A stretch of DNA of 64,000 bases from Candidatus Daviesbacteria bacterium (GTDB taxonomy: Bacteria > Patescibacteriota > Microgenomatia > Daviesbacterales > UBA10151), in NCBI GenBank assembly GCA_016187025.1, contig JACPKM010000004.1, forward strand, positions 228,887 to 292,886, read 5' to 3'. Below, one piece after another: positions 19,819-35,139 of the stretch (its first letter is position 1; every line of letters starts with the position of its first letter). A model generated the notes under the pieces. That model saw nothing but the letters and a program-made list of their open reading frames with translations. It searched no databases and was not told the origin of the DNA. The translations under genes were made by a program, and so were the position numbers.

Positions 19819-19955
19819 TACGGGGATATTTTACTATAGATTGGTTTGCTACGGGGTTACTAATAACTAAACAAGCTAGTAATTCGGGTTTTATTTGGTA
19901 TAAACTGGAGTAAGCAGTTGATGCTATAATTCGAGCAAAGCGAGAATCCTAAAAT

Positions 19956-20350: not shown

Positions 20351-20353
20351 GCC

Positions 20354-20379
20354 ATAAAAAACCCCCTATTGCTAGGGGG
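20354..20379 (-). terminator. Rho-independent terminator (minus strand)
   Basis: Perfect 7-bp stem CCCCCTA/TAGGGGG with 4-nt loop (20362-20379), preceded on + strand by ATAAAAAA, i.e. a U-tract after the stem on the minus strand. Downstream of the island operon/recG fragment. Confidence 0.5.
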
Positions 20380-20498
20380 AGCAGCCTAGTCCTTCGATTT
20401 CTCTCAGAACAGCTCACCTGTACGATTAGTCTTCGGCTGAACTTTAAATAAATCCTACCACAAAACTTTATCTTTGTCAAAAAAAACATTCTTTTGTG

Positions 20499-20720
20499 TT
20501 AAGCGAAGTTTAAATTTCTAATTGACCAAATTTCGCCCTGTAAGGTCACTTTTTCACCTACTTTAGCACCTAAAGCACTAGATACATTGGAAAAATCATC
20601 ATACCTAAAAGGAAAATGATAAATCAAATCCTCAATAGTGTTTAAACTAAAGAAGCTTAGTTTATAGGCAAGGAATGATCCGATACCTGAGATTTGAATT
20701 AGAGTAGTTTTGAGATCCAT
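20499..20720 (-). pseudogene. Duplicated 5' fragment of recG (codons 1-~70), truncated
   Basis: Encodes MDLKTTLIQISGIG...EDLIYHFPFRYDDFSNVSSALGAKVGEKVTLQGEIWSIRN then stop. nt 20516-~20632 are near-identical (1-2 mismatches in ~115 nt) to recG nt 19614-~19730. More 5' part diverged. Confidence 0.6.
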
Positions 20721-20756: not shown

Positions 20757-22670
20757 TCAGGTGTTCTTGACTTTTTTGAAGTCAAAAGCTAGTTTCTTAC
20801 CTTGAGTAATCTGAAAACCAGATACTTCCCATCCAGGAGTTTTTTCTGTGAGCTTTTCTTTAATAATTCTATTTAAATTGGCAACATAACCTTCTATCTC
20901 TCCCCTTTTTAATTCAGCAATTCCTAAGTTTCCTACATGATGATTTTTAACACTTACTCCTCCTGAAGAATCATTTACAAGTTCAACATCAAATGTCGTA
21001 TCTACATTTACAGTTCCAAAAAAGGTTTTTTTCTCTGCATGGACTCCAGCAGAAATAGCCAGTCCTCCTTCAGGCGTAAACTGGTATTGAGGATTTAAGA
21101 TGCGACCATTTGCTGGAAGTGGTAACGTTTTAACATAATCTACAAGTCTGTCAACTCCTGCAACAATTCTTTGTCTTTCAGATCTACTTCCTCTTAATGT
21201 TTCGTTTAATTGATCTATCAGAGATACTCCTGGTTTAGGAGTAATTTCTGTGGTATGTACTTGTGGAACAGCAGGTTTTTCGCTCTTAGTTGGTGGAAAA
21301 GATGGACCCTTGTTTTCTGATATTACAGGTTTTGGTTGTAGATTATTGCTTGGCCTCAATATTACTGCGGGAGATAAGGTTAGTCCGTAGTATCTAATTA
21401 TATCCTGAACGGATTTATATACAGCTCGACCAATACTTGGATCAACAATTTGCACTTCTAAGTTTCCATCACTTGTTCTTCTTACTCTACGTCCAGGTAA
21501 TATAAAGCCTATTCGTCCTGTTTCAACACCTCTTGGACCAATAGTACAGTCATTAATAGGTAAAATTGCTACTGCTCCTTCTTCAACGTTTTGAAGTATA
21601 TCTGCAAGGGAGTTTGTTTCTCTAAATCTTATCTCAGGTGCTTGTAAAGATAATGCGGAAAGTAACTCCTTTATACTTCCACCTCTTTGATGCTCCGTAG
21701 CATATCTACTACCTCCAAGTGCTGCGATCAAAGCACCTTCAGCATGTCTAGAGTGATTAAACCCTTCTCCTAGAAGATGTCTTATAGCATTTTCAGCTGA
21801 AGCAAACACAGAGCTGTCCATTCCAAAAGGATCTGCCTGCGTTCTAATATTTCGTACAGGTTGAGGTTCACGTAAATGCATTAATCTTGGATATCTTTGC
21901 CTGACATCCTTCTCAGCTTCGCGAAACCTCATGAGAGTTTTATCATCAAAATTAAATCCTCTTTCTCTTGCTTCATTCCCCATCCTTGCAAGTTCATTTT
22001 CTAGAACCCTATCAAGTACCCTCCCTGAGTTTGGTGATCCAGAAGGAGTTTTAGTGTCTTTTTTTCCTTCTTTTTGTAATATTCTGGCTTGTTTTAGATA
22101 TACCCACTGTGAACCATAAATTACTGTGGCTGCCTCATCTATTGACTTTGCATATTCTGACTTTACTTTTTCTCTATCTTGAGGTTTATTAGCCTGCTCA
22201 ATTGTCTTTAAAAATCTTTGTGACATTTTTTCAAATTCTAAAGCTGTAGGATAATCTCTTGCTACTCTGTATATATCTCTTGGTACCAGCTGATTTTCTT
22301 GAGTAATATCTCCTCTTCTGGTGGCAAATGAGACCACTCTTCTTAAATGTCTATGGTCTGCATCTTCTCCTTTGAATCTATCAAATACAGCCACTGGATT
22401 TTCTCTATCAGATTGAGCATCAACAGGAGTGGGAATAACAGCTAACAGTTGTCTTAAATCTTTATCACCTATACTACCTGATACCAGTCCTTGATGGTAC
22501 TTATCTTTCTCATCAGTAGTTACATCTACTTTATCCAAAAGTACCAATCTTGGATTTCCTCTGACAATTGAGGCTACTATTTTATTTTGACGTCTAATAT
22601 TAGGGATAGGTTCTTGTTGGGCAACCATTAATGAAGCTGATATTTCAGATGAGTGTTCTGTACTTGCCAT
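20757..22670 (-). CDS. Lineage-specific protein: N-terminal shared domain A (~190 aa) + unique C-terminal region
   Basis: Residues ~25-215 (RRQNKIVASIVRGNPRLVLLD...YGSQWVYLKQARILQKEGKKDT) are paralogous to the N-terminus of 24237..25565 and the C-terminus of 25735..27741. Start set at MAS (22670). No signal peptide. Confidence 0.6.
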   Translation of the reverse strand: MASTEHSSEISASLMVAQQEPIPNIRRQNKIVASIVRGNPRLVLLDKVDVTTDEKDKYHQGLVSGSIGDKDLRQLLAVIPTPVDAQSDRENPVAVFDRFKGEDADHRHLRRVVSFATRRGDITQENQLVPRDIYRVARDYPTALEFEKMSQRFLKTIEQANKPQDREKVKSEYAKSIDEAATVIYGSQWVYLKQARILQKEGKKDTKTPSGSPNSGRVLDRVLENELARMGNEARERGFNFDDKTLMRFREAEKDVRQRYPRLMHLREPQPVRNIRTQADPFGMDSSVFASAENAIRHLLGEGFNHSRHAEGALIAALGGSRYATEHQRGGSIKELLSALSLQAPEIRFRETNSLADILQNVEEGAVAILPINDCTIGPRGVETGRIGFILPGRRVRRTSDGNLEVQIVDPSIGRAVYKSVQDIIRYYGLTLSPAVILRPSNNLQPKPVISENKGPSFPPTKSEKPAVPQVHTTEITPKPGVSLIDQLNETLRGSRSERQRIVAGVDRLVDYVKTLPLPANGRILNPQYQFTPEGGLAISAGVHAEKKTFFGTVNVDTTFDVELVNDSSGGVSVKNHHVGNLGIAELKRGEIEGYVANLNRIIKEKLTEKTPGWEVSGFQITQGKKLAFDFKKVKNT

Positions 22671-22779
22671 AATTATGTATTTTAACATAAATTATAGGAT
22701 AGATCTATCTAGTTAAGAACAAAACCTAACCAATATCAAACCTATAACACTTGACAAAAGGGCATTCATATTCAAGCTC

Positions 22780-24234
22780 CTACTGAATTGAAGAGGTGAC
22801 TGTAGTAGATGGTTCGCCCCTACCCAGTAATTTGTTTTTGACTAATTTTCTAATGGATTGCCAATATTTGTTTACTCTATCAGAAGTATAAGGATCTCCT
22901 CCATCTGGAATGAGCATATGTTGAGGTAGAAATCCGTTTTGAGCTTCATCTCGAATACTTTCTACCTGCATCCCTCTTACATGCTGGAAATTTACAATAT
23001 TATGTGCTCTGTTTACACCTCCGTCCCCCCAATAAGGGTCATGTATGATTATTTCTTTTTGAGGATCTGCTTCTGGTATTGTTGTATCGACATTACTTCT
23101 ATTAAGAAGTAGCTCTTTGGCAAGCCCTAAACCTGAAAGGCCAATAGTGAACAGATTTCCTAAATTTCCCATACCTACAGATAAAAGATTTCTATCAAAA
23201 TCCGGTTGCATCATTCCTTGATCAATTTCTGTTTGCATAAGGTCATAGAGTTCTTTTACAAAAAAGTAATTCTCCTTCACCTTTGATTGAAGCTTTTTTA
23301 ACAAAGCCTTAACCAGGACATTTTTACGATAACTTCTTTCGTCCTGTTTACCATCGGGGTTTTCATCCTCCGCCAGAATAAACCTCATTGCTGTTAAAGT
23401 ATCCATCTGCTGAGGACCGGCTTTAATAAGTTTTGGACCATATTCTTGACCACCTAGTTTAAAGGGTCCAGTTAGGTGATCTTTTTGCACCTGCACATCT
23501 AAAGGACCAACTTTATCCAAGAGATCTCTGATTACTGTATCTTTTATAACCATCTGGTAATCTATTGCCAAACCTGTGGCTTCTTCCACAACTTCTCGAA
23601 CTTGATCAAACTTTCCTTCACGATAAACATGACGCATATACATAGTTTGCACTCTTCCATCACTTTGTCTTTTTTCTAAATTCGGTGTTCTTATATCGCG
23701 GCTTAAAGATACTGACCTGATTTTTCCAGTTTTCAAATCATAAGAGATGACTGTAGGTGATCCACCATAGTTTGCATAACTTTCTCCATGCTCTTCCCAA
23801 TATACCCATAAAACTGCATTAACTGTGTTGTCGCTAAGTTCCTTATCAACCCTTTTACTATATTCCGGATCGTTTCTTTCTCTTTCTGCTCTTTTGCGGT
23901 ATGCCTGTTCAACAAAAGGTTTTAGGAGTTCATTAGTAAGTTTTACTTCTTTAACTGGTGGTTTAGTTGGTTCAGCAGTAGCGGTTGGAGGTAGTGGGGG
24001 TTGATCTCCTTTTGAAGGTATATTTGTAGGGGGAAAATGCTGATTTGATTCTACTCGAGGAGTTCGCAATAATCCTGGAACTAGTAAAGAGGCGAAACCC
24101 GCAGCGACAGCAGCACCACCACCCAATAAAAATCTTCTCCTGGAAGCATCCGGAGGGATAGCTCCAGATTCACCGAGTCTTATGAAATTAACTTTTCCTC
24201 CTAAAATTGGATCTATTTCAGATATTGGTTCCAT
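22780..24234 (-). CDS. LytR-CpsA-Psr (LCP) family protein with twin-arginine-type N-terminal signal/anchor
   Basis: SRRRFLLGGGAAVAAGFASLL (S-R-R-x-F-L motif + hydrophobic h-region). LCP-like blocks: VISYDLKTGKIRSVSLSRDI (cf. ...VSIPRDT), GLAIDYQMVIKDTVIRDLLDKVGPLDV (cf. IDYY..GF..IVDAVGGVDV), DTLTAMRFILAEDENPDGKQDER (cf. ALAFTR.R..D..GDF.R). Confidence 0.6.
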   Translation of the reverse strand: MEPISEIDPILGGKVNFIRLGESGAIPPDASRRRFLLGGGAAVAAGFASLLVPGLLRTPRVESNQHFPPTNIPSKGDQPPLPPTATAEPTKPPVKEVKLTNELLKPFVEQAYRKRAERERNDPEYSKRVDKELSDNTVNAVLWVYWEEHGESYANYGGSPTVISYDLKTGKIRSVSLSRDIRTPNLEKRQSDGRVQTMYMRHVYREGKFDQVREVVEEATGLAIDYQMVIKDTVIRDLLDKVGPLDVQVQKDHLTGPFKLGGQEYGPKLIKAGPQQMDTLTAMRFILAEDENPDGKQDERSYRKNVLVKALLKKLQSKVKENYFFVKELYDLMQTEIDQGMMQPDFDRNLLSVGMGNLGNLFTIGLSGLGLAKELLLNRSNVDTTIPEADPQKEIIIHDPYWGDGGVNRAHNIVNFQHVRGMQVESIRDEAQNGFLPQHMLIPDGGDPYTSDRVNKYWQSIRKLVKNKLLGRGEPSTTVTSSIQ

Positions 24235-24236
24235 AA

Positions 24237-25565
24237 TTATCTTAATTTAGGTAATCTTATACCTAAGAATTTAGATCTTGCCGGTTTTGGCGATAAATCT
24301 AAAAGAATCTTTGCGCAGTAGCTTAAAGCTAATAATTTACCATTTATCTCAGGTGTTGGAGCATAGCCCCTCCTACCTACATTTTGTGTATATTCATAGA
24401 TATCTTTATAAACTTCTCTGTCAGCAAAAGGCTTGGTCCTGGGATGCTGCATCCTGGAATTAATATGGTTAACAATTAAGTTTGCAAGACTCGCCTTTTG
24501 GCTTATTGTAAGAGTAGTATCTCTAAGAAAGGTTGAAGACAAATGTTGATAGACTCTACGAACCAGATCTGATGATAAATTAGTTAAATTTCTGGCAACA
24601 TTGGGCCAATCTGAGGCCAGGCCTTGAAAAATAAAGGTTAACTCTGGATTGGAAAGAGCTGTAAAATTTCTTCTATTTTCTTCTGTGTCGAAAAATAATG
24701 GCCTGGAAAAATAAAGTCCTAATTTTACCCGAAGCAATGAACGTTGTTCTGGTGTTAGACTCATAGTTTGAGTTGTGTGATCCACAAGCGATTCAATCAT
24801 GGAAGCTACAGTTGTAGCTTCTGCAGGTTGAAGGTCGGGAACCGGGTTTATATTTACTATGTCTGCTTCAGCGGGTTTTAAGACTATCTCGACATCTGGT
24901 GCTGCAACAACTTTTACCTTGGCTGCTTCAGTGTCTTTCCTTCCTTCTTTTTGTAATATTCTAGCTTGTTTGAGATAAGTCCATTGGCCGGCATAAATAG
25001 CTTGTCCGATAGTATCAAGTGTACCGATATACTCTAGCCTAACTTTTTCTCTATCTTCTGGCCTGTTTGCTTCTGAAACAGCTTTTAGTACTTGTGGAAT
25101 TACTTGTTCAAAATCTAAAGCAGTAGGTAGTTTTTCAGTTACGGCATAAAGATCTGATGCTTTGATTTGGTCTTGTGGAGTGATGCTTCCTCTGGTAATA
25201 AAGGCTACCGCTCTTCTCATGTGTCGTTGTTGGAAACCATCTCCCTCAAATCTTGCAAACAAATGTACTGGATTTCTACTATCTGGTGCAGCTTGAACAG
25301 CTGTCGGTAATATGGATACAGCTTTTTTAAAGTCTATTGCAGCTATAGTTCCTTCTCTAATACCTTTGGCAAAGTTTGCTCTTTCATAATCGCTTATTGG
25401 TACTACATCAGGTAATAGTAAACGGGGATTGCCGCGCAATACAGCTGCAATTATTTTATCTTGTCTTCTTGGATTAGGCTCTAGTCTTTCAGGGGGTAAT
25501 AAAGTTATTGAAGAGCTATCAGTTCCTAAAGGATTAGATGAATTACTTTCTGCTGCCTCTGCCAT
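24237..25565 (-). CDS. Lineage-specific protein: N-terminal shared domain A + unique C-terminal region
   Basis: RRQDKIIAAVLRGNPRLLLPD...YAGQWTYLKQARILQKEGRKDT domain A (aa ~30-215). C-terminal 220 aa unrelated to 20757 gene. Start 3 nt after LCP gene stop. Confidence 0.6.
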   Translation of the reverse strand: MAEAAESNSSNPLGTDSSSITLLPPERLEPNPRRQDKIIAAVLRGNPRLLLPDVVPISDYERANFAKGIREGTIAAIDFKKAVSILPTAVQAAPDSRNPVHLFARFEGDGFQQRHMRRAVAFITRGSITPQDQIKASDLYAVTEKLPTALDFEQVIPQVLKAVSEANRPEDREKVRLEYIGTLDTIGQAIYAGQWTYLKQARILQKEGRKDTEAAKVKVVAAPDVEIVLKPAEADIVNINPVPDLQPAEATTVASMIESLVDHTTQTMSLTPEQRSLLRVKLGLYFSRPLFFDTEENRRNFTALSNPELTFIFQGLASDWPNVARNLTNLSSDLVRRVYQHLSSTFLRDTTLTISQKASLANLIVNHINSRMQHPRTKPFADREVYKDIYEYTQNVGRRGYAPTPEINGKLLALSYCAKILLDLSPKPARSKFLGIRLPKLR

Positions 25566-25734
25566 ACTTTAATATTATTATCTGGAGAGTGAAAAATACA
25601 ACAATTATCTTTTCAAAGCTCGTATATTAAGTATAATTGCTCTTGTTACTAGATCAGGTTTCTGATTGGTACCCTCAGTAGCTTTTTGAGTGTGTCTTCC
25701 TTGCTTTTTCATTCTCCACTCAGGATAGTGTTGA

Positions 25735-27741
25735 TTATTTTCCTTGTCGCATTTGTTGCTCTAATATTCTGGCTTGTTTGAGATAGACCCATTGTGAGCC
25801 ATAAATTGTCATACCAACCTTATCTAAAACACTAACATACTCTAATCTAATCCTCTCTCTATCTTCTCGTTTATTTGCTTGCTCAACTGCAAGTAATAGC
25901 GTTGGTATTGTTTGCTCAAAATTAAGGGCAGTTGGAAACCGTTTTGCAAAAAAAGCAAGATCTGCAGCGGTTATTTGATCATGAGAGGTAAGATTACCTT
26001 TTGTCACATAAGAAACAATTCTACGCATCCTCCGAGCATCATCCGTAGCTTCCTTAAATTTAGCGAACAGACTTACTGGGCTTTCTGGATCTTTTTCATA
26101 TGCTAAAGAAGTTCGAATAACTTTAATCATATTTAAATACTGTGTTGATCCAATAACACCATCACGAACTCCCTTTTGGAAGAGTGCTCGCTCTGCTTCT
26201 GAAACGACAACTTTATCAACCAACACAAGACGATGATCTCCCCTTACAATCGCTGCAATTATTTTATCTTGTCTTCTTGGATCCGGAGAAGTATTTAGCT
26301 CAACTTGTGATTGTTCAGATGGCTTTTGTCTTACTTGGGATTCCCCTGTTTTGGTAGAGGATGGTAATTGGGGGCCTTGATTCCATGAGTCCATATAAAC
26401 GGTTGCCATATTAGTTTCGCCCCTTTTTATTGACTCTTGCATTCTTCTAGATCTTTCTATAAATCTGCTCATGTCTGTAATTACTATCCGGCTTCCGTGG
26501 ATATCTTTAGGGTCTCCTATGATTGTATATTGAATACCAACCATTTCTAGGTGAGTTCTATAAAACCAAGAATTCTTGCCCAAATGTTCTCCTTCCTCGT
26601 AGCCATTAATCACTTTATTTAATATTTGAGTTATTTCCGCTTTAAGTTGCTCTACCTTTGCTGGATTAGAATAATCAAACATGGGGAACTGATTTACATC
26701 TAAAGCCCTCATCTTAGCTTCTGCAGATGTATCACCAAATGGAATCTGTCTTCCTTGGCCTTCTAAATAGCTGCTTAATCCCCGCCTATTATTTGTGATT
26801 AATACTGTTCCATCACCGGCATATCCGAGTGTTCCTTTTGCTTTTCTTAGTGATCGTATTGTTTTCCCAGTCCATTCTTGTTCTCCTGTTTTTAGCGCAG
26901 AAGGGTAACCTCCAATCGCAGAGTAAATCGATGACTTCATTACAGAGTTTGCCCCAAATAAGTTTACATTTCCATTAATAAAACCACGTTTATCAAGCAG
27001 ATTGACAAATTCTGTTTTAGCATGAACAGCTGGAAATCTGGTAAAGGATTGAGGATCAAATAAAAGGTTTCCAACAGCACCTTCTTTATCAGGATGTTCT
27101 CTAAAATATTTTAAATATTCTTCTAGGTATTGTGGATTTAAGCCCTCACAATCAGCATCGTTACTCAGTAGTAATATATCCTTATAAACTCCCGCATTTT
27201 CTGTTCTTATTAGTGCAAGATCAGTTTGAATTTTTCTAATATTCCCAATCTTTACCTGCTCGTCTGGTAAGGTTGCTGCCACTAAGCGAATATTTAACCT
27301 AGGGAAAGTTTTTCCAGCACGTTTCACTTCTACAACAGTGGCTTTGTATGCGTCTTTTTTACTCTGCATTTGGGATTCAGGAGCGTTCACAAAAACGATT
27401 AACTCAAATTTTTTTGAGTCTAGTGTTTGTTCAGAGTAAAGTTTTAATGTCTTAAATATATTCCTTGCTTCTTGTATACCAGCAACCGGTATACAAACTA
27501 CGGCTTCTGTTTCAGGACGCATGCTTTTACCAATTTGACTATCTAGTCTTTTCAGTTGTGCTAAGTATTTTGGATCCTGTCTTTGTAGGTAACTTCTTCT
27601 TTCTGTGACCGGGTCTAATTTAGCATTTGGATTTTGTAATAATGTCGGAGAGGCAGCTACTCGATCAACTAAACTTACTTGTCTTAAGGTAAATGGGTTA
27701 TCAGGTGTGGATATGATATCTGCTGTTGGATCTTGGTCCAT
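25735..27741 (-). CDS. GT-A-like glycosyltransferase-domain protein with C-terminal domain A
   Basis: aa ~78-430 paralogous to the giant protein region aa ~1310-1710 (AVVCIPVAGIQE..., DxD-like SNDADC, GANSVMKSSIYSAIGGYP, EEGEHLGKNSWFYRTHLEMVGIQY). aa ~487-668 = domain A (PRRQDKIIAAIVRGDHRLVL...SQWVYLKQARILEQQ). Confidence 0.6.
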   Translation of the reverse strand: MDQDPTADIISTPDNPFTLRQVSLVDRVAASPTLLQNPNAKLDPVTERRSYLQRQDPKYLAQLKRLDSQIGKSMRPETEAVVCIPVAGIQEARNIFKTLKLYSEQTLDSKKFELIVFVNAPESQMQSKKDAYKATVVEVKRAGKTFPRLNIRLVAATLPDEQVKIGNIRKIQTDLALIRTENAGVYKDILLLSNDADCEGLNPQYLEEYLKYFREHPDKEGAVGNLLFDPQSFTRFPAVHAKTEFVNLLDKRGFINGNVNLFGANSVMKSSIYSAIGGYPSALKTGEQEWTGKTIRSLRKAKGTLGYAGDGTVLITNNRRGLSSYLEGQGRQIPFGDTSAEAKMRALDVNQFPMFDYSNPAKVEQLKAEITQILNKVINGYEEGEHLGKNSWFYRTHLEMVGIQYTIIGDPKDIHGSRIVITDMSRFIERSRRMQESIKRGETNMATVYMDSWNQGPQLPSSTKTGESQVRQKPSEQSQVELNTSPDPRRQDKIIAAIVRGDHRLVLVDKVVVSEAERALFQKGVRDGVIGSTQYLNMIKVIRTSLAYEKDPESPVSLFAKFKEATDDARRMRRIVSYVTKGNLTSHDQITAADLAFFAKRFPTALNFEQTIPTLLLAVEQANKREDRERIRLEYVSVLDKVGMTIYGSQWVYLKQARILEQQMRQGK

Positions 27742-27779
27742 ATTTAAATAATTACTTGATTAGTTTGAGCTTGCATTGT

Positions 27780-30700
27780 CTATTTGAGTTGATTATAGGC
27801 GTTAGATAAATCTATTAACATTTGATCAGTAGTTTGGTATCTATTTCTTGGTTCTGGATCAAGCCCCTTAATAAATATTCTTTTAATACTATCAGGTATG
27901 TTTGCTGGAATTTCAAATCTTCCATTCGTATGGGCTTCATATTCTCTTTCTAGTAATCTTTGCGTTGATTCACCTTTAAATCTTGGAACATTAAATGGGA
28001 AATTACCAGTCATTAACTTATATAGCAATACTGTTAATTCATAGGTATCGCAGCTTAAAGTAACATTAGGGTTTTCTCTAAAAAGTTCTGGAGGTCTAAT
28101 ATGTCTATTTCCTCCTACAAACCCTCTCCTAAATTTCCCCCCGGTACCTTTAATGCTACCTGCATCAAAGTCGATTATTTTTATACCTTGCTCGCCCAGT
28201 AGGATATTAGAAAGTGCAATATCAAGATGTACAATACCTGCATTATGAAGCTCTCTTATAGTTTCTGCAATTTTTATAGTAGTAGCAATTGCTTGCTGGG
28301 GTGGTAAAGACCTATTTGTCGCAAAGTAATGCTCTAAATCAGTATTTTGAAGTGGATAAATTTTAATGATTTCGTCACCGTTATCAATTTCATCTATAAA
28401 AGTACCAAATGTAGGGCTTGTTGTTTGTGCCTTGATTATTGTTTCTAGATCTTTTACTCCATCTGGATAACGATTTGCTTTTGCAATGTATTCTCTTTCA
28501 CTCTTTTTTACCCTTTTAAACGACAAAATCTGTCCAGTTGTTTTATTGTATCCTGCAACAATTTGTCCCATTTGACCTGATCCTAAAGGTTTATCTAAAC
28601 AAACCACATAATCACCAAATTCTTGAATTTGCGTGCTCTCCTTTAGCTTTTCTAGATCATACTTTGGAGCAGTTGTTGTAGGTATAACTACTGGGTTTTC
28701 CTTATTAAACTGATCCAAAGCGTTATCCGCTTCTGCTTTTTCTGCTAACTCACGTTCTTTTCTTGTGATATCCAAGTTTTCTAGTTCTTTTTGGAATTCA
28801 TCCTCAAGTCTGGTAAGCTCAGCCAAAGTTTCTGGAGTTCCTTTACCTGCTTTTATATCTCTGAGTAATACTCCAATCTTTTGATAGTGTTTTAATCCTC
28901 TAACTAAAACATCCATATTTATTATAACCACATTACCATTTACTACTTTGTACTGGATTCCCGACCATCGTAGTGCACGTTGGTAATATTCAGAGTCCTT
29001 GCCAAGTCTTTCGCCATGTTCGTAAATATCAAGTGTTTTATTAATAACTGTCTCCAATCCTTCTTTGAATTTAGCAAGTTGAGCGGGATCATCGTAATTA
29101 ATATTTTCTCCTTCCCCAAGTTGCATTCTTCTGATTTCATCATCGAAGGCACTGAATTCTTTTTGCCATTGATCTAAAGGAACAATTCCATCCTTGATTG
29201 CGGCTATGGCTCGTCTGGCTGATGTGTATAGCCTGGATACTCTTGTTCCCGCGAAGGTAACTCTTTTATGGTCCTGTCGACCTTCAATAATTCCCCAGCC
29301 AATCGCAATATCTTCCCCGCCTTCAGAACCTGGTAAATAACCACCAATAGCAGCATAAATACTTCCACGAAACGCAAAGTTTGCTCCACTTGAAGGCATT
29401 CGCCCGCTGCGGTGGCGACCAATTACGGCTAAATTCTGAAACAAACGCGTACCAATATGTAATAGTGGATATTTAATATAAGCTTCCGGATCCCAATCGA
29501 GTTGACCCAGCATTCCATCTACTTGCGGGTTTTGTTCAAACTTCTGAATGAAGTTACTTAAATATGTTGGAGCAATACCTTTGTTATCTGCATCGTTACT
29601 TATTAAGATTATATCTTCTGCTTTAGGACCTCTCTGATATTGCCTAAAAAGTGCAATATCATTTAAATACTTTCTGATAGTGCCAATGTTTGCCTGCTTT
29701 ATAGGGAGCGCTTTAACTACCACTCTAATAGGCACATCAGGATGATCTTTTCTAAATCGTTCTATTTCTGATAAGGTGTTATCGGGTTTGACTGGTTCTC
29801 CTTGTTTATCAGTTTGTGGGTAATTTACAAAAAGCAAGATCTCATATTGGTCCTTAGAAGCATCCTGAGGTAGATAATTTGCCAAAGAGTTATAAATATT
29901 TCCTCCTTCTTGATGTCCTGCTACCGGAATACAAACTATAGCCTTTAAGTTCACCGAAGGTTCTTCTTTAATCTGTCCTGTTAACTGTTTTATTTCTTGA
30001 TAATATGCTGGATTCTGCTTTTCAAAATACATCTGTGCTTCTTGGTATGAATTTAGTTTTGCATTGGGGTTTTGCTTTAATGTTTTAGATCTATTTTTTG
30101 CTAAGATTTTCAAAATTTCCTCTCTTGGCCTGCCTCCATAAAGAGAGCCAGGAGGTATAAGTCTTTCTTCAAATGGTAGAGGGTGATATGGGGCAAAAGG
30201 GGTTGCCCAGAGCTTATCTGCAGGTATTTCTGCTGGTAAAGGTGGGATATATTTAATTGCTTCAGGCGGGGTAAGCTTAAACCCTTCGTGAGGCGGTCTG
30301 GGCTCAGGAATAGGAATTGCCTCCCCCGGAATAGTAGTTGGAATCTTTTGAACTTCCCCCGGACCAACTGTTGTTGAAAGTATAGTTCTTACCATGGATC
30401 CATCCGGCCTTTTTTCAACATGCGCAACCTCAATAAATTCTACATTCTGAAAGTTTCCCCATTTGTTCCTAATGGGATTTCCATTTTGATCCAGATTAAA
30501 TAAAGCTTTTGTTAAAGGAGAGTTAGCATCTAAATTAAGTTTTCCCTGCATAAGCTCCGGATGGGTTTGGGCATTAATTACCACTACTTGTCTTGCCTCA
30601 TCAGCTGCATGATCAGGAGTAATTAAAATCTCAAAATTTCGATAACCATTTTGAGAAATATCTTTTGCAAGCCTGCCGTATTGTGAATCAATGGAAAAAT

Positions 30701-33700
30701 CCCAGTTTACCCCTCTTTTTCCATCAGGCAGAAGCTGTGATCTCATCTGGGAAAAGTCCAGCTCAACTTGTCCATCTTTTACCCTGTGATGAAATTGCAG
30801 TTCTTTGCCGTCTATTCCAATTATATTGCCAGTATCCTTACTGCCTGCTGGTCTGCCGTCAGCAAATCTTCTTATGGTGTCGTTATCATGCCAAAGATCA
30901 CGTCTGGCCCGGTCTACCTCCCCAATTTCTTTATGTTCTCTTATAAAACCAAAAAAATCTTTATCAACAATCTTATCGGGACTTTTCTCATATCTTATTC
31001 CAGGAGGTGTTTCAAATTGCTTAGACTCAATTGCCCATCCTTCTGTTTTGAGCCTGGATTGGACACTGTCCCAGTTAACATTTGCATTAGCCGGATCCTG
31101 CGGGTCAAAAGACAAAGCTCCTTCCTGGTCAAAATGGCCCACAATCCAAGCATTATCAGGGCTTTTTATATCAGGGTTACCCAGAAAAATAGAAACAGAG
31201 CCACGGTCTTTGTTCAAATCCACAATTGAGCTTCCGTGGATAAAAGTTAAGTCCTGCTCCGGTGAGCTGGCAAAATTCTTAATCTTTTGATGAATATTAA
31301 AATCAGGGTTATCATAGATTTCTCTTGTCCATCCTGTATCAGTTACTAAATTTTTAATTTTTGGATCAAGGCTGGCTTCAGCTCCTGAAATAACCAGTGA
31401 GCCTTCTGAGGTAACCCTCACCGGAGGACCGGCAATTGTCTGCCCGGTAGCCCTGTCTATAAAATGTGCATTGTGCCCATTATCCGCTCCATAGTTTGTT
31501 GCTAAAGTCAGATCATTGTTAAGGTCGTAATTTTTAGGATTATCAAAAGTTTGTTTGAAAGTATCCCTTGCTAATCCAGGTGCTCTTGTAGGTGTCCACC
31601 TGGTTTCAAAAAAGCCCCTTCCATCCATCATGTTTTGAACACCCCTGACAGCCAGTCCTCCTGCAAATCCTAAGGTAGATGCAAAAATTGTTGCTCCAGC
31701 TGCCTGGCGGACTCTGTAGTTTCTTGCTGCTCCATTTTTTGCTCTTTTGTCATCACTGATTTCCTGGTCAACAACATCAAATTGCTCTGACAGTAAAGTA
31801 TTAAGTTGTGCCGCATCTGTAATCTGGGACCTTAACTTTTGCTCAAGCCTTGCTGCAGCATCAACCAACTGAGCAACTTCCTGATCTGCTAAAACATAAT
31901 TTTTACCGTAAGTTATATACTCACTTTTTTCTCTTCTTCCTCTAATAAGTCTTACTCTAATTTCCTGCATTCTTCTTGCTACTTCTTGCTGGTTGGTCGT
32001 GTTGGATAAATCCAATGTGAGTAATTGATCAACTCCCGCTTGGAGATGATTTTGACCTCCGCCATCAAGCAGTTGCTTTGCAGAAAAGGTTTGGTAGCGG
32101 GATCTTTCCATATCCCGCCTTCTTTCTGTACCACGCAGTCTTCCCCATAGCCCTCCATTTGCCTGCATATCAGGTACTGTTCCACCTAAAGCAACCTCTG
32201 CTGCATGCATTTTTTGCTGATGTGCGACCTCTCCTAGTCTTCTTAACCCTACAACTCCTCCTCCTGCAACCGCACCAAGAATTAATCCTCCTAATGGTCC
32301 TGCTAAAGCTGTGCCTCCAACTACAGCGCCTATCCTCACCCCGCCATTTGCAGCTTTTAGCAGCCCATCTGCCCCCAGCGAAACCGCTGCTCCCACAAAC
32401 AGAGGGTTTAGAATTGTTCCTGCCAGCAGACTGTCGCCGCCCTTTACTAAACTTTCAGCCCGTCTTCTTCTTGCCCAGGCAACAGTTTTATCTGTGGCTG
32501 TGAGGTTTTCGGTATTACCGGCAAATCTTGCATTTGCAAGCCTTATGGTGACATAAGCATCAATTTGGTCAGCTCCTTCCTGGTGTTTTGCCAGATTATC
32601 TTTGAGCTTTAGCCCCATTTCCAAAAGATCTGTTGCAAAATAATCAGCAATCTGCCCAAAACTTTCAGCTTGATTACCAAATAGTTGCCTGATTAAAGGA
32701 TTATCCATATTGTTTTGGACAAACTGAGTTAACTGCCTTCTAACATCTTCTTTTCTTTGTCTAATTTCAGCTTCATTTTGAGGAACATTACCAGTAACAA
32801 TAGGGGTAAGGATGTCTTTAATAATTTTGCCTCTTAAGTCATTTTGTTCAGGAGTGTTTTTATCTAGTGTAATAATTTGCTCTCCATTTAGAGTTTGATT
32901 TGCTTTTAATCTGCCCAACACTGCTTGCTGTTGCGCATCGGTACTGTGTCTTAGATCATTTAGTCTTTGTGCAGCTTCTTGAGAGAGGCCTCTCACTGGA
33001 GAGCCATCAAAAAATGATTTTCTCATCTTTTCGTACATTAGATTAACCGCTCCACCTCTGCCGAGTCTTACTCCTATCATTGAGGGAATTCTCCAAATAT
33101 CCCTCCAGCCTTTAAACTTCAAAAACTTTTCTACCTCTTTTTGTGCGTCCAGGTGCAAAACTTTTTCAATAACGTCTGTATTTCTGGTAATATTTATTTC
33201 AACCTCTCTTTGTTCTGGCTGAGAAGATGGAGATGGTTCTACTCCTGGTCTTCCTGGGGTGTCAACAGGTGCAGGAGCTGCAGCAGGTGCGCCGCCTGGA
33301 GCAGAAGCTGCAGGAGCTGGGGAGGGGGCAGCAGGCTGTTTGACAGGTTGCAGAGTATCTGGATCAACCAGCTCCCTTCTTGCCTCCAATGCAGGCTTGG
33401 CAACCTCAAGCCAGTCTTTATCTGGTTCTCCTCTTTTTCTGGAATCCTGATATGCAAAATACGCCTCTTGTTGTAAACGGGCTTTAAATTGTGGACTTGA
33501 TTCATCGTGAGCATCAGGATGCACCTCTTTATAAGCCTTACTGCTTGCTTTTAAAACTTTAATTGCATTTTGAATTTTCTTCCTCTCATTTTTATTAGTT
33601 GTAAAAAGAGCTTCCTCGTTTAACAGTTCAAGAAGCCCGTCAATCGGAACACCCTCACTTTGGCTGAAAGCTTGCCCTGTTTGGGGATCTGTAAAGTTGT

Positions 33701-34010
33701 TTGTAAAACTAAACCCGCCCTTTGCGATATCAGCTTTATTTTTAGGATCAGGTTGATTGCTGCTATCCGGGTGGGGTGCAAAAGCGCCTTGGATAGCTTC
33801 ATAAGCATGTCTTGCCTTGTTTATCTTACCTGTTTGATTGGGGTCTGCAAGCAAACTTGGGTTATTTAAAAGCCCCTCAATTTTTGTTAGTCCAAAACGT
33901 AGAGCATTTTTGACTTGTTGCCGGCTAGGAATTTCCGGGGTGTTAATTTTACCAGGATGACTTTCTATATCTTGAACTGAGACAGGGTTTTCTGTTGGTT
34001 GGCCGTTCAT
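27780..34010 (-). CDS. Giant (2076 aa) multidomain protein: Pro/Ala-rich linker, glycine-zipper hydrophobic segments, GT-A-like domain, C-terminal Ser/Thr protein kinase-like domain
   Basis: Pro/Ala-rich aa ~221-267 (nt ~33210-33350, locally GC-rich). Gly-rich hydrophobic aa ~528-589 and ~769-790 (GAAVSLGADGLL...GAVAGGGVVGL). GT-A-like aa ~1355-1580 (AIVCIPVAGHQEGGNI; ILISNDADN DxD). Pro-rich linker aa ~1222-1290. Kinase aa ~1795-2076: LGSGQMGQIV G-loop, LSFKRVKK, HNAGIVHLDIALSNILL catalytic loop, IIDFDAG (DFG-like). Confidence 0.7.
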   Translation of the reverse strand: MNGQPTENPVSVQDIESHPGKINTPEIPSRQQVKNALRFGLTKIEGLLNNPSLLADPNQTGKINKARHAYEAIQGAFAPHPDSSNQPDPKNKADIAKGGFSFTNNFTDPQTGQAFSQSEGVPIDGLLELLNEEALFTTNKNERKKIQNAIKVLKASSKAYKEVHPDAHDESSPQFKARLQQEAYFAYQDSRKRGEPDKDWLEVAKPALEARRELVDPDTLQPVKQPAAPSPAPAASAPGGAPAAAPAPVDTPGRPGVEPSPSSQPEQREVEINITRNTDVIEKVLHLDAQKEVEKFLKFKGWRDIWRIPSMIGVRLGRGGAVNLMYEKMRKSFFDGSPVRGLSQEAAQRLNDLRHSTDAQQQAVLGRLKANQTLNGEQIITLDKNTPEQNDLRGKIIKDILTPIVTGNVPQNEAEIRQRKEDVRRQLTQFVQNNMDNPLIRQLFGNQAESFGQIADYFATDLLEMGLKLKDNLAKHQEGADQIDAYVTIRLANARFAGNTENLTATDKTVAWARRRRAESLVKGGDSLLAGTILNPLFVGAAVSLGADGLLKAANGGVRIGAVVGGTALAGPLGGLILGAVAGGGVVGLRRLGEVAHQQKMHAAEVALGGTVPDMQANGGLWGRLRGTERRRDMERSRYQTFSAKQLLDGGGQNHLQAGVDQLLTLDLSNTTNQQEVARRMQEIRVRLIRGRREKSEYITYGKNYVLADQEVAQLVDAAARLEQKLRSQITDAAQLNTLLSEQFDVVDQEISDDKRAKNGAARNYRVRQAAGATIFASTLGFAGGLAVRGVQNMMDGRGFFETRWTPTRAPGLARDTFKQTFDNPKNYDLNNDLTLATNYGADNGHNAHFIDRATGQTIAGPPVRVTSEGSLVISGAEASLDPKIKNLVTDTGWTREIYDNPDFNIHQKIKNFASSPEQDLTFIHGSSIVDLNKDRGSVSIFLGNPDIKSPDNAWIVGHFDQEGALSFDPQDPANANVNWDSVQSRLKTEGWAIESKQFETPPGIRYEKSPDKIVDKDFFGFIREHKEIGEVDRARRDLWHDNDTIRRFADGRPAGSKDTGNIIGIDGKELQFHHRVKDGQVELDFSQMRSQLLPDGKRGVNWDFSIDSQYGRLAKDISQNGYRNFEILITPDHAADEARQVVVINAQTHPELMQGKLNLDANSPLTKALFNLDQNGNPIRNKWGNFQNVEFIEVAHVEKRPDGSMVRTILSTTVGPGEVQKIPTTIPGEAIPIPEPRPPHEGFKLTPPEAIKYIPPLPAEIPADKLWATPFAPYHPLPFEERLIPPGSLYGGRPREEILKILAKNRSKTLKQNPNAKLNSYQEAQMYFEKQNPAYYQEIKQLTGQIKEEPSVNLKAIVCIPVAGHQEGGNIYNSLANYLPQDASKDQYEILLFVNYPQTDKQGEPVKPDNTLSEIERFRKDHPDVPIRVVVKALPIKQANIGTIRKYLNDIALFRQYQRGPKAEDIILISNDADNKGIAPTYLSNFIQKFEQNPQVDGMLGQLDWDPEAYIKYPLLHIGTRLFQNLAVIGRHRSGRMPSSGANFAFRGSIYAAIGGYLPGSEGGEDIAIGWGIIEGRQDHKRVTFAGTRVSRLYTSARRAIAAIKDGIVPLDQWQKEFSAFDDEIRRMQLGEGENINYDDPAQLAKFKEGLETVINKTLDIYEHGERLGKDSEYYQRALRWSGIQYKVVNGNVVIINMDVLVRGLKHYQKIGVLLRDIKAGKGTPETLAELTRLEDEFQKELENLDITRKERELAEKAEADNALDQFNKENPVVIPTTTAPKYDLEKLKESTQIQEFGDYVVCLDKPLGSGQMGQIVAGYNKTTGQILSFKRVKKSEREYIAKANRYPDGVKDLETIIKAQTTSPTFGTFIDEIDNGDEIIKIYPLQNTDLEHYFATNRSLPPQQAIATTIKIAETIRELHNAGIVHLDIALSNILLGEQGIKIIDFDAGSIKGTGGKFRRGFVGGNRHIRPPELFRENPNVTLSCDTYELTVLLYKLMTGNFPFNVPRFKGESTQRLLEREYEAHTNGRFEIPANIPDSIKRIFIKGLDPEPRNRYQTTDQMLIDLSNAYNQLK

Positions 34011-34012
34011 TA

Positions 34013-34351
34013 CTAGTTTGTAACTGGTGTAGAAATAACTGTATTCCCAAGATATAAATCCCTAAAATCCAACATAGCTTTGGCAAACACATCCTCTGAG
34101 TTGGGAATTTTTTCTTTTAAGAATTGTTGAATTTCTTGTTGTGGCCTTTTTTGGTCCACCATTTGGCTGAATTGGTCTAAATGTTCAGGGGGCAAATTAT
34201 CCAAAATAGTTGTAGACAGGAAATTATCAAGTCTGACATATAAATCATCGATTAGCTGCTTGTGCATATTCCCGTCTGCAGCAGTGATACCTGCCTCTGT
34301 TAATAGATTGTCTAAATAGCCCCTAACTTCTGGTGGAATTTGGTTATCCAA
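34013..34351 (-). CDS. Small acidic protein translationally coupled to the giant gene (candidate chaperone/adaptor)
   Basis: 112 aa, acidic, helical-looking. Its TAG stop is separated by 2 nt from the giant gene ATG (TAG-ta-ATG). 250-bp AT-rich putative promoter region upstream. Confidence 0.5.
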   Translation of the reverse strand: MDNQIPPEVRGYLDNLLTEAGITAADGNMHKQLIDDLYVRLDNFLSTTILDNLPPEHLDQFSQMVDQKRPQQEIQQFLKEKIPNSEDVFAKAMLDFRDLYLGNTVISTPVTN

Positions 34352-34602
34352 AAAACTTCACCTCCTTATTCATACTTAATTCCAGTATTTCACTAATAAT
34401 AATATGTTGTCAACAGGAAACCCGCTATTTATACTTAAAACACATGTTATTTGTTTTTGTGTTTTTACTTGAGTTGTTTTTGTTGTATTTCTTATCTAAA
34501 AATTTGATAAAAGAGTTATCCGTAATTCTTCTAAAAATAAGCAAGTATAACCATTCATTTACTGTTAATATTTTGGCTGTAGTTTTTTTGCCTGGGACAA
34601 TA

Positions 34603-35139
34603 ATGCATGAGCTTGCTCATCTTTTAATAGCCGGAGTTTTGATGGTCCCTGTTGGCGAGTTAGAAGTGATCCCTGAGATAACAGATAAAGGAGTCAAACT
34701 GGGAAGTGTCCAAGTTGGCCAAACAGACCCTTTTAGAAGAATTTTAATAGGAGTTGCTCCGGTTTTAGTAGGGATTGCCACCATTACCTTTATAATTTTT
34801 TTCAACCTTGATACTTTAAAAAATTTATCTTCCTGGTTGATTATCTCTTCGGTTGTTTATGGACTCTTTGAGGTTTCTAACACTATGTTTTCCAGTAAAA
34901 AAGATATAGAGGGGGCTTTAGTGTTTCTTGGTGCTTTGGTAGTTGTTGGAGTAATACTGTTTGGGGCATTTTTATTCACAGGACAATCAATTCCTAACAG
35001 TTGGCTAAAACTTGTTGATTTTTCCTCTGTTTATATCTTTTTTAAAATGGTTAGTTTATATATGCTCCTGCCTTTGATAATTGATTTGTGCTTTTTTGCA
35101 GTTTTTAAACTGGTTAACCTAGCCTTAAATCGAGGTTAA
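34603..35139 (+). CDS. Membrane protein with N-terminal HExxH (putative zincin-like, DUF3267-like)
   Basis: MHELAHLLIAG at N-terminus followed by 4-5 TM helices. Start chosen at ATG 34603 because upstream part of the listed ORF runs through AT-rich intergenic-looking DNA. Confidence 0.4.
   Translation: MHELAHLLIAGVLMVPVGELEVIPEITDKGVKLGSVQVGQTDPFRRILIGVAPVLVGIATITFIIFFNLDTLKNLSSWLIISSVVYGLFEVSNTMFSSKKDIEGALVFLGALVVVGVILFGAFLFTGQSIPNSWLKLVDFSSVYIFFKMVSLYMLLPLIIDLCFFAVFKLVNLALNRG

Follow-up and report, generated by a model that had tools for sequence, protein, structure and literature searches.

Closest described systems

The block of six genes described here, found in a 64-kb window (the whole stretch of DNA that was analysed) of Candidatus Daviesbacteria, resembles several described systems in its individual parts. 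The closest known counterparts of its glycosyltransferase (GT) modules are the GT2-family GT-A enzymes acting on wall-polymer or lipid-linked acceptors, among them PcManGT (6yv7), TarP (6h1j), TarS (5tze), RmlT (8bz4) and the hyaluronan and cellulose synthases. One protein shares the N-terminal transmembrane (TM) anchor and extracytoplasmic domain of the LCP (LytR-CpsA-Psr) ligases, and further parts recall the Ser/Thr kinases PknB and StkP with their phosphatases PstP and PhpP. Polymorphic toxin families, such as the type VII LXG toxins, are built on a shared N-terminal trafficking domain and accompanied by Lap/WXG-like small helical partners, and the large glycosylating toxins TcdA/TcdB and PaTox are giant polypeptides in which a GT-A domain occurs together with another enzyme domain and a hydrophobic internal region.

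Against this background, the block is tentatively explained, with a probability of roughly 0.4, as an expansion, specific to Daviesbacteria, of a conserved cassette on the chromosomes of Candidate Phyla Radiation (CPR) bacteria, a cassette predicted to encode a membrane-associated envelope glycosylation machine with a recurrent module, domain A, as its docking element. The invariant core of the cassette consists of a small DUF5663 protein and a giant, putatively membrane-associated glycosyltransferase protein. The system is undescribed, yet it is made of known enzyme folds.

Organisation of the block

Six open reading frames, designated g6 to g1 and lying, like the protein regions, promoter-like sites and hairpin located below, on the minus strand, occupy positions 20757-34351, which matches exactly the coordinates given in an earlier sequence-only reading; in the order g6 to g1, they are separated by 2, 38, 169, 2 and 91 nt. 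The best promoter-like match of the region, TTGACA-18-AATACT with an extended TG (34413-34384; 10 of 12 positions), is located upstream of g6, where a promoter had been proposed, and is a consensus match only. A strong Shine-Dalgarno sequence, AAGGAGG, lies 8 nt ahead of the TTG start codon of g6. The 169-nt and 91-nt gaps hold AT-rich promoter-like sequence (TTGNNN/TATAAT-like) near the start codons, so that co-transcription of all six genes in a transcript of ~14 kb is only putative.

A search for minus-strand terminator-like hairpins inside the block returned none. The terminator that had been claimed for its end does exist as a hairpin followed by a T-run (20362-20379; 7 pairs, 5/7 G-C), but it is found ~380 nt past the g1 stop codon, and a duplicated 5' recG fragment (20499-20720) and a separate promoter-like site just upstream of the hairpin (20480-20452) intervene, so that it may not terminate the block and its assignment is doubtful.

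The DUF5663 protein and the giant protein

The first gene, g6 (34013-34351), encodes an acidic, helical protein of 112 aa (pI 4.39) and ends 2 nt upstream of g5. It matches the Pfam family PF18908 (DUF5663) above its cut-off (E=1.7e-11) and shares 53% identity with the orthologue in the related locus L014, which supports the TTG start. No paper mentioning DUF5663 was found in the literature.

The giant g5 (27780-34010; 2076 aa), labelled by NCBI just as 'protein kinase [Candidatus Daviesbacteria bacterium]', is composed of a variable N-terminus, a conserved body, a glycosyltransferase module (GT-A1) and a kinase domain. The body (aa ~270-820; 31551-33203) is common to all giants and was detected by iterative HMM search in 33 of those mapped; it is 22-26% identical to the giants of loci L003, L008 and L014, and its profile has no match in the PDB. 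Across the giants, a conserved region of ~800 aa comprises Gly/Ala-rich hydrophobic segments and a beta-rich region and is accompanied by the glycosyltransferase. In g5, two adjoining Gly/Ala-rich segments of GxxxG type (aa 527-590; 32241-32432; Kyte-Doolittle maxima 1.70-1.75) form a putative membrane hairpin, and a third, weaker segment (aa 770-790; 31641-31703; 1.52), which reappears ~200 aa past the first pair in other giants, is a putative membrane crossing. Such segments occupy equal relative positions in most giants, and their hydrophobicity in g5 is marginal (1.5-1.8); three literal TM segments would implausibly place the glycosyltransferase and kinase outside the cell. Next comes a conserved region (aa ~1022-1300; 30111-30947; consensus WYDNDT...NEL.L.WGG..GTGID in alignment A10), which has ~40% identity to the giants of L001 and L008 and no match in Pfam or the PDB, followed by a Pro-rich linker.

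The likeness of g5 to TcdA/TcdB and PaTox, namely a GT-A domain, a second enzyme domain and an internal hydrophobic region, is accompanied by differences: g5 has its enzymes at the C-terminal end, the reverse of the toxin order, its glycosyltransferase resembles GT2 and not GT44 enzymes, neither an autoprotease nor a region of receptor-binding repeats is present, and the gene is single-copy, conserved and chromosomal, beside housekeeping genes.

Glycosyltransferase modules

GT-A1 (aa 1308-1711; 28878-30089) carries intact DXD (SNDADN) and canonical GT2-type ED (GGED) motifs in a GT2-type fold, the GT-A fold having been assigned on its paralogue in g4 and carried over to GT-A1. This paralogue, GT-A2 (aa 31-436; 26434-27651), forms the greater part of g4 (25735-27741; 668 aa), deposited at NCBI as hypothetical protein HYW42_04545, and is followed by a C-terminal domain A (aa 486-667; 25741-26286). 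GT-A2 retains SNDAD, has GEQEW in place of GGED and may be catalytically impaired. In contrast with the described GT2 enzymes, the module is recognised by no GT family model in Pfam, NCBIfam or PDB profile searches, is extended by helices at the N-terminus and by an alpha/beta subdomain at the C-terminus, sits in proteins of 1.2-2.4 kaa with a novel body, and comes together with a paralogue that reads EQ at the ED motif. Its relatives number 13 among 5.8 billion protein clusters.

The cassette in related genomes

The order DUF5663 gene, then giant (body plus glycosyltransferase), is preserved in ~35 metagenomic loci of uncultured relatives, the DUF5663 gene lying directly upstream of the giant wherever the contig reaches far enough. 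A glycosyltransferase is present in all of these cassettes, and glycosyl transfer is accordingly their constant predicted activity. Outside the window, 11 distinct loci include a kinase as a fusion or as a neighbour, and about two-thirds of cassettes have none within the contig; the second GT-A paralogue is confined to the nearest clade. The parts are also linked by fusions, of domain A with GT-A2 (g4 and its L003 counterpart P0002) and of kinase with GT-A2 (P0013), and the giants bear interchangeable C-terminal modules, namely GT-A, GT9, kinase and a module C. In L014, the giant has a body homologous to that of g5 (aa 19-1279, 25% identical, E=1e-55) and bears a GT9 (GT-B) domain in place of GT-A, with stand-alone GT9-domain paralogues downstream, which parallels the pair GT-A1 and GT-A2 of the window.

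The core is flanked by housekeeping genes (UvrD in 6-7 loci, RecG in 2, FtsH, RsmA), and a LysM-M23 peptidoglycan hydrolase gene adjoins it in 4-5 loci. The proposal that the six genes make up one conserved system was not borne out, as only DUF5663, giant with glycosyltransferase and, in part of the loci, kinase and GT-A2 occur together in relatives; comparison of neighbourhoods found the DUF5663-giant core constant, but domain A in three cassettes only and LCP at the window locus only (1 of ~35).

Domain A and its partner domains

Besides g4, two further proteins carry domain A. In g3 (24237-25565; 442 aa), it spans aa 31-212 (24930-25475), and the C-terminal region (aa 216-442) has no match in Pfam, the PDB or related loci. 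In g1 (20757-22688; 643 aa), for which the NCBI entry P0014 starts 6 codons later, domain A (aa 30-211; 22056-22601) precedes an orphan middle region and module C (aa 490-643; 20760-21221), the latter being 30% identical to the C-terminal end of the giant in L014 (E=1.9e-13), present twice in the L003 giant and, outside g1, found on giants only.

Domain A adopts a confidently assigned all-alpha, non-enzymatic fold with near-invariant Q, Y, G and L positions and no conserved catalytic-type residues; it has no relative in the PDB and 158 matches among 1.84 billion representatives. It is N-terminal in nearly all of ~150 proteins, and its fusion partners in relatives comprise GT-A2, transglutaminase-like peptidases and, often in other CPR bacteria, PP2C phosphatases. 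Pfam finds PP2C on 25 of the 102 scanned proteins, and clustering assigns 38 of 99 C-termini to a PP2C cluster, beside an uncharacterised cluster of 36, a group of three with a transglutaminase/EDR1-peptidase-like C-terminus, and many singletons, including g1 and P0002. A docking role is suggested by these fusions, which are its sole basis. The rarity of domain A and of the GT-A module, together with the DUF5663 literature search, agrees with the suggestion that the block is lineage-specific and undescribed.

The adjacency of the genes might be partly coincidental, with g6-g5-g4 as the sole functional unit and g3-g2 and g1 as separate transcription units that share only a duplicated domain. 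Related loci contain nothing comparable to the LCP protein, the C-terminal part of g3 or the middle of g1, other genomes have their domain A genes dispersed, and the promoter-like sequences in the two wider gaps point the same way. However, the only three copies of domain A in the window are clustered within 7 kb, their nearest non-self relatives, P0015 (L014) and P0002, both reside inside DUF5663-giant cassettes, module C ties g1 to the giants, and the block contains no minus-strand terminator. This is the least probable of the readings weighed here.

Foremost among the alternatives, although unlikely, is that the genes serve an episymbiotic CPR bacterium as an effector system, either host-directed or contact-dependent, in which the giant would be a secreted, self-translocating toxin-like protein whose Gly-zipper helices enter the target membrane and whose C-terminal glycosyltransferase and kinase serve as warheads. 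DUF5663 would then be a small acidic chaperone, and domain A a new N-terminal trafficking domain, opening one export route to polymorphic enzymes with GT-A, PP2C, transglutaminase-like peptidase and orphan domains as cargo. As in polymorphic toxins, an all-alpha N-terminal domain of ~180 aa precedes diverse C-terminal enzymatic domains, and a small acidic helical protein is encoded in close coupling with a large one; the swappable modules of the giants, the absence of signal peptides and several small unannotated ORFs after a domain A-peptidase gene in L012 also fit, as does the role in host interaction proposed for CPR giant proteins (PMC8080830). Against it, the housekeeping flanks of the core are conserved across loci, unlike those of variable islands, and every cassette retains a glycosyltransferase rather than a changing toxin domain. 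Neither an EssC/FtsK-type ATPase nor another secretion apparatus was found in the block or its immediate flanks, no immunity gene candidate follows g3, g4 or g1, and the small partner is found with the giant instead of with the domain A proteins. PADLOC and PHROGs matched the generic kinase domain only, and viral relatives or copies of the cassette were not found. The commonest cargo of domain A, PP2C, is not known as a typical toxin domain.

The kinase domain

The C-terminus of g5 (aa ~1796-2076; 27783-28625) is an atypical Hanks-type kinase with HLDIALSN, DFD and PPE motifs, which scores 90.6 bits against Pfam Pkinase (E=1.4e-25) and matches StkP and PknB in the PDB (E~1e-13). The beta-3 Lys, catalytic Asp and Asn are all preserved, as are the first Asp of DFD and the PPE motif, which is APE-like. 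It differs from PknB/StkP in lacking a PASTA sensor, in its catalytic loop (HxDxAxxN, the Lys replaced), in DFD instead of DFG, in a Gly-loop that is degenerate in relatives, and in its C-terminal fusion to GT-A within a giant.

An improbable alternative is a cytoplasmic hub of Ser/Thr phospho-signalling that, like PknB/StkP together with PstP/PhpP, would control wall growth or cell division. The giant would be a membrane scaffold-kinase, glycosylation one regulated output, and domain A the element that recruits to the kinase PP2C, whose gene would lie elsewhere in the genome, and further clients, those in the block being two glycosyltransferase-related and two orphan proteins. The prevalence of PP2C as the commonest fusion partner of domain A, the want of catalytic-type residues in the latter, the 11 cassettes with a kinase and the adjoining wall hydrolase genes are in its favour. 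Yet most cassettes have no kinase within the contig, unlike glycosyltransferases, the kinase itself is atypical, Pfam detects no PP2C in the block, and the domain A-PP2C genes examined, in Saccharibacteria L053 and L054, lie away from any DUF5663-giant cassette and adjoin ComEC and a PilB-like ATPase.

The LCP protein and the proposed envelope glycosylation model

The gene g2 (22780-24234) begins 2 nt past the stop codon of g3 and encodes a divergent LCP-family protein of 484 aa. Its N-terminus bears a Tat-like SRRRFLL motif, in line with the twin-arginine-type signal proposed before, and one TM or hydrophobic segment (aa 34-57), followed by a Pro-rich linker and the LCP domain (aa ~160-340). 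It passes the PF03816 cut-off (47.1 bits; cut-off 24.6), its SLxRD motif is preserved, and in the PDB it matches 3qfi (E=1.6e-4) and 3okz (E=8e-4), both of them LCP structures. Its score against TIGR00350 (36.2) is below the cut-off of 62.3 and far under equivalog cut-offs, the RxR region aligns poorly, a C-terminal extension of ~140 aa is present, and the gene does not accompany the cassette at the other loci. With this protein, all of the domains claimed by the sequence-only reading (GT-A, kinase, LCP, the shared module of ~190 aa and the small acidic partner) were recovered.

In the envelope glycosylation machine that we favour, DUF5663 would be made in step with the giant and serve as its partner or chaperone, and the giant would lie at the cytoplasmic membrane face, anchored by its Gly/Ala-rich hydrophobic hairpin(s). 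GT-A1 would use a nucleotide sugar to glycosylate an acceptor close to the membrane, which may be a glycan, either polyprenyl-linked or of a wall polymer, or a protein of the envelope, and GT-A2 could perform a second step or act as a non-catalytic partner. The kinase might regulate the machine or phosphorylate its product, and domain A would dock the accessory enzymes g4, g3 and g1 onto the complex. The extracytoplasmic LCP protein would finally ligate the finished polyprenyl-pyrophosphate-linked polymer to peptidoglycan, a step resting on a single gene neighbourhood, as LCP occurs in one of ~35 loci.

Weighed against this model were that same LCP distribution, the lack of polyprenyl-phosphate transferase, flippase and sugar-nucleotide genes in the block, the marginal hydrophobicity, a GT-A outside sequence models, the EQ of GT-A2, a kinase without the catalytic-loop Lys, and the promoter-like sequence in the 169-nt and 91-nt gaps. 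In its favour were counted the synteny, the constancy of the glycosyltransferase, the fusions between parts, the conserved hydrophobic positions, the start of the LCP gene 2 nt after g3, and the flanks, whose housekeeping and LysM-M23 genes fit a vertically inherited cell-envelope function.

Organization of the block

Six minus-strand open reading frames had been proposed by the sequence-only reading as a single co-directional effector or envelope-modification block in this contig of Candidatus Daviesbacteria, a CPR/Microgenomates lineage (source contig 300 kb, NCBI record), and all of them are present at exactly the coordinates it assigned. The block opens with g6 (34013-34351; 112 aa, pI 4.39), a DUF5663 protein, followed by the giant g5 (27780-34010; 2076 aa, named "protein kinase" of Candidatus Daviesbacteria at NCBI), in which a long body precedes a GT-A glycosyltransferase module (GT-A1) and a kinase. 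The next gene, g4 (25735-27741; 668 aa, hypothetical protein HYW42_04545), joins a paralogous module, GT-A2, to an all-alpha module termed domain A, and it is succeeded by the domain A protein g3 (24237-25565; 442 aa), the LCP protein g2 (22780-24234; 484 aa) and g1 (20757-22688; 643 aa), which carries domain A, an orphan middle region and a C-terminal module C. Every domain call made in that reading for these genes survives testing.

The intergenic gaps from g6 to g1 measure 2, 38, 169, 2, and 91 nt, and upstream of g6 there is a strong Shine-Dalgarno sequence as well as the region's best promoter-like site. No terminator-like hairpin was found on the minus strand inside the block. The hairpin that had been taken as its terminator (20379-20362) is real, but it lies about 380 nt beyond the g1 stop, past a duplicated recG 5' fragment and a promoter-like site of its own, while the AT-rich gaps of 169 and 91 nt contain promoter-like hexamers; that the six genes are all co-transcribed is therefore only plausible. 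The block lies in ordinary chromosome, between RecG, RNase III, S16 and TrmD at one end and a NUDIX protein with a class I aminoacyl-tRNA synthetase at the other; at a greater distance there are ATP synthase, a class A PBP, additional tRNA synthetases and a type IV pilus cluster. The Rfam search found no ncRNA within or adjoining the block.

The DUF5663-giant core

Neighbourhoods of the GT-A homologues, including 38 metagenome loci, were mapped with local HMMs, which revealed that a two-gene core of DUF5663 and giant glycosyltransferase genes recurs in about 35 loci, always with the DUF5663 gene directly upstream of a giant of 1226-2406 aa. The DUF5663 assignment of g6 is supported by a match to PF18908 covering 82 of 84 profile positions (E=1.7e-11; 45 bits against a cut-off of 23.7). 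The giants are constructed from a variable N-terminus, a conserved body of roughly 550-800 aa and the GT-A module, and they share two or three Gly/Ala-rich hydrophobic segments at conserved positions as well as a conserved region with the consensus WYDNDT...WGG..GTGID.

Structure prediction, carried out on GT-A2, gave the Rossmann-like alpha/beta/alpha architecture of the GT-A fold, and all 14 of 14 family members, like every giant-embedded copy, carry the DXD motif as S-N-D-A-D. At the catalytic-base position, which was assigned by alignment and not by superposition with a bound substrate, the GT-A1 copies including that of g5 have the canonical GGED motif and the GT-A2 copies including that of g4 have GEQ(E/D)W; GT-A2 of g4 is possibly a non-catalytic paralogue. 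Neither g4 nor the glycosyltransferase region of g5 matched any Pfam or NCBIfam model at E<=0.1, curated glycosyltransferase models such as PF00535 included, and the profile search of PDB sequences with the GT-A module returned zero matches. Likewise, sequence and profile searches of the PDB yielded nothing for g1, g3, g4, the giant's body or the domain A partner termed cluster 2. A word-indexed search with the N-terminal 1282 aa of the giant recovered only itself, its candidate list being saturated by low-complexity words.

The C-terminus of g5 is a Hanks-type kinase of an atypical subfamily. It matches Pkinase (PF00069) at aa 1807-2061 with 90.6 bits against a cut-off of 31.7, and StkP/PknB in the PDB at E~1e-13, and it retains the core catalytic residues, namely the beta-3 Lys (FK), the HxD Asp (HLD), the Asn (SN) and the first Asp of DFG (DFD), which are present throughout the cassette kinases. 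The Ser/Thr-type HRDxKxxN loop is not preserved, its Lys being replaced by Ala, Leu or His in all cassette kinases; the catalytic loop of the subfamily is HxDxAxxN and DFG is changed to DFD. Most relatives have a degenerate Gly-loop, that of g5 (GSGQMG) being intact. Besides the window, 11 distinct loci have the kinase, either as part of the giant or in an adjacent gene.

The wider block is conserved in part: the DUF5663-giant pair is constant among the cassettes, but domain A occurs in only three of them (the window, L003 with a domain A-GT-A2 fusion, and L014), the LCP gene was found solely in the window among the cassettes mapped, and GT-A2 is restricted to the nearest clade. In this Daviesbacteria lineage the cassette has grown by a possibly non-catalytic glycosyltransferase paralogue, an LCP ligase and three proteins with domain A. 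Fusions join the modules elsewhere, as in the kinase-GT-A2 protein P0013 and the domain A-GT-A2 protein P0002, and the L003 giant carries two copies of module C. The L014 giant, whose homology spans aa 19-1279 (E=1e-55), has a GT9 (GT-B) domain in place of GT-A, while its C-terminal module shares 30% identity with the g1 C-terminus (E=1.9e-13). Downstream of it lie split stand-alone paralogues of its own GT9 domain, followed by the closest non-self domain A protein, which implies that the pairing of a giant-embedded glycosyltransferase with a stand-alone paralogue recurs despite the swapped fold class.

The three genes on each side of 26 cassettes are mostly housekeeping genes (UvrD in 6-7 loci, RecG in 2, FtsH, RsmA), and a LysM-M23 peptidoglycan hydrolase is located near 4-5 of the 26. 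A defence-system or phage origin was considered and rejected, since no relatives of the cassette were found on viral contigs and the PADLOC and PHROGs libraries matched the generic kinase domain only, besides two matches weaker than E=0.005.

Additional genes were observed around individual cassettes. In L008 (12365-17036), the DUF5663-giant-kinase/GT-A2 cassette is directly followed by a 1445-aa protein and a second DUF5663 gene, and L028 and L029 also contain additional DUF5663 copies, so that these genes are multi-copy around such cassettes. In L014 (14579-20458), a conjugative/type IV secretion-like cluster lies some 4 kb downstream of the cassette, with PrgI, TraC-like and VirB4/TraG-type ATPase genes and next a protein of at least 989 aa; opposite-strand genes lie between cluster and cassette.

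Domain A and its partners

The three copies of domain A, at the C-terminus of g4 and the N-termini of g3 and g1, share 40-48% identity, and a confident predicted model shows a new all-alpha domain without a solved relative. A word-indexed search with a single domain A sequence missed even the window's own proteins, and an exhaustive profile search was accordingly required; among 1.84 billion representative proteins it returned only 158 matches at E<=1e-3. A profile search of genome contigs with an alignment of eight domain A sequences gave only two loci, neither of them inside a cassette. The named sources of domain A proteins are Saccharibacteria, Levyibacteriota and Daviesbacteria.

In 57 of the 60 best full-length matches listed, domain A begins within the first ~20-90 residues, and the regions downstream of it fall into 23 clusters among 99 proteins, giving a shared N-terminus with variable C-termini. 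The largest cluster (n=38) is a PP2C phosphatase, Pfam PP2C being detected in 25 of 102 scanned members; another (n=36) has a partner domain of ~340 aa without a Pfam family in the three members scanned and without a PDB match as a profile, and a small one is an EDR1/transglutaminase-like peptidase. The singletons include g1, the fusion P0002 (the L003 counterpart of g4) and one coiled-coil protein. Domain A genes with other partners reside in unrelated genomic contexts.

This shared N-terminus with exchangeable C-termini is what one would expect of an effector family, and it could be read as a sign that DUF5663, the giant and domain A constitute a previously unknown, CPR-specific system for delivering effectors into the host cell of the episymbionts. 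The giant would then act as a self-inserting translocator with glycosyltransferase and kinase warheads and DUF5663 as its chaperone, while domain A would be a new trafficking domain whose presence tags PP2C, GT-A, orphan and transglutaminase-like peptidase domains for export. We regard this as unlikely. The domain A genes are not followed by immunity genes: g4 precedes g3, g3 precedes the LCP gene, g1 precedes the recG fragment, and no small co-directional open reading frames are present. Moreover, no secretion apparatus occurs in the block, in its immediate flanks, or next to any of about 29 related cassettes, and a type IV pilus cluster (PilM, 12594-13631) is ~7 kb from the block, past housekeeping genes. 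Membership of the type VII (LXG/EssB-like) systems or of the large clostridial toxins was rejected for want of secretion ATPase genes, immunity genes and similarity to toxin-type glycosyltransferases.

Two Saccharibacteria domain A-PP2C genes (L053, 8001-9302; L054, 5297-6556) adjoin ComEC, with a PilB-type (T2SSE) ATPase a few genes away, and a pilin-like gene also adjoins the one in L053. This vicinity could reflect either the common ancestry of both genomes or a genuine link to pili or competence.

The LCP protein and a proposed role in the cell envelope

Profile matches place g2 as a divergent LCP protein, its score against PF03816 being above the cut-off (47.1 versus 24.6) and that against TIGR00350 below it (36.2 versus 62.3), with equivalog models far below their cut-offs. 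Its SLxRD motif aligns with the LCP structures 3qfi and 3okz, with an offset in the RxR region farther downstream. Ahead of the LCP domain there is one hydrophobic segment (aa 34-57) as an N-terminal anchor. The Tat-type motif SRRRFLL, followed by GGGAAVAAGFASLLVPGLL, was read directly from the sequence only, which shows no obvious AxA site past the hydrophobic stretch. LCP proteins normally retain their N-terminal hydrophobic segment as an anchor.

The constant glycosyltransferase, the weakly hydrophobic membrane-type segments, the coupled small partner and the vertically kept chromosomal position together suggest a glycosylation machine that is associated with the membrane and serves the cell envelope. 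In such a machine, domain A would dock accessory enzymes onto the giant/kinase complex, and the LCP protein would attach the product to peptidoglycan. Against this interpretation, the LCP linkage is limited to one locus, the block lacks an initiating transferase or flippase, three literal transmembrane segments would put glycosyltransferase and kinase outside the cell, and the kinase is atypical. A phospho-signalling hub and a partial coincidence of adjacency are further rivals to it.

Novelty and significance

CPR/Patescibacteria account for a large share of bacterial diversity, and to our knowledge next to nothing has been established on the construction of their envelopes or their engagement with hosts. 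The enzyme folds in the cassette are already known, whereas no description was found of the DUF5663-giant pairing, the giant's body, the sequence-undetectable GT-A family, the kinase subfamily, domain A or module C. No paper mentioning DUF5663 was found in the literature, and the general CPR literature refers to giant membrane proteins in unspecified terms only.

What is newly defined comprises the two-gene DUF5663-giant core with its distinctive kinase subfamily, and domain A, which is common to Microgenomates and Saccharibacteria and has phosphatases, peptidases and glycosyltransferases as partners. Expressible glycosyltransferase and kinase modules, together with a candidate docking domain in groups with cultivated members (for example Saccharibacteria), provide handles for experiments. 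If the cassette does serve the envelope, it would represent a wall-glycopolymer or protein-glycosylation pathway without a described counterpart; if it delivers effectors, no dedicated effector system would have been described for CPR episymbionts before it.

Further observations in the region

Beyond the g1 stop lies a minus-strand fragment of 73 codons (20499-20720) that repeats the 5' end of the intact recG (17800-19818). The two agree over ~113 nt at every position but one, and the initial ~95 nt of the gene have diverged. The ~680 bp that separate the copies hold a degenerate plus-strand open reading frame starting at 19956 (MLPNRVYCYVDESGQDTEGEIFLY*), whose YVDESG motif we take to be DUF3800-like. 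The stretch 19819-20720 looks like an old insertion at the recG 5' end that brought or regenerated a replacement 5' end. The minus strand has a good promoter-like site at 20480-20452 (TTGACA-17-TAGGAT, extended TG) ~70 nt upstream of the hairpin at 20379-20362, and the two may delimit a small transcript of ~90 nt; Rfam gave no match at 20362-20480 even at E<=1.

Divergent from g6, the plus-strand open reading frame 34333-35139 encodes a multi-pass hydrophobic protein of 268 aa with an HExxH-like motif (IMHELAHLL) and no Pfam match. The GTG annotated as its start overlaps the beginning of g6 by 19 nt, so the real start probably lies further downstream. At the far end, GC content reaches 53.5% over the first 1 kb of the window, compared with ~38% elsewhere, and the open reading frame 389-1195 in this GC-rich part has no Pfam match. 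The gene at 1205-4480 encodes a 1091-aa surface-type protein with CARDB and PA14 domains, and the type IV pilus cluster comes after it.
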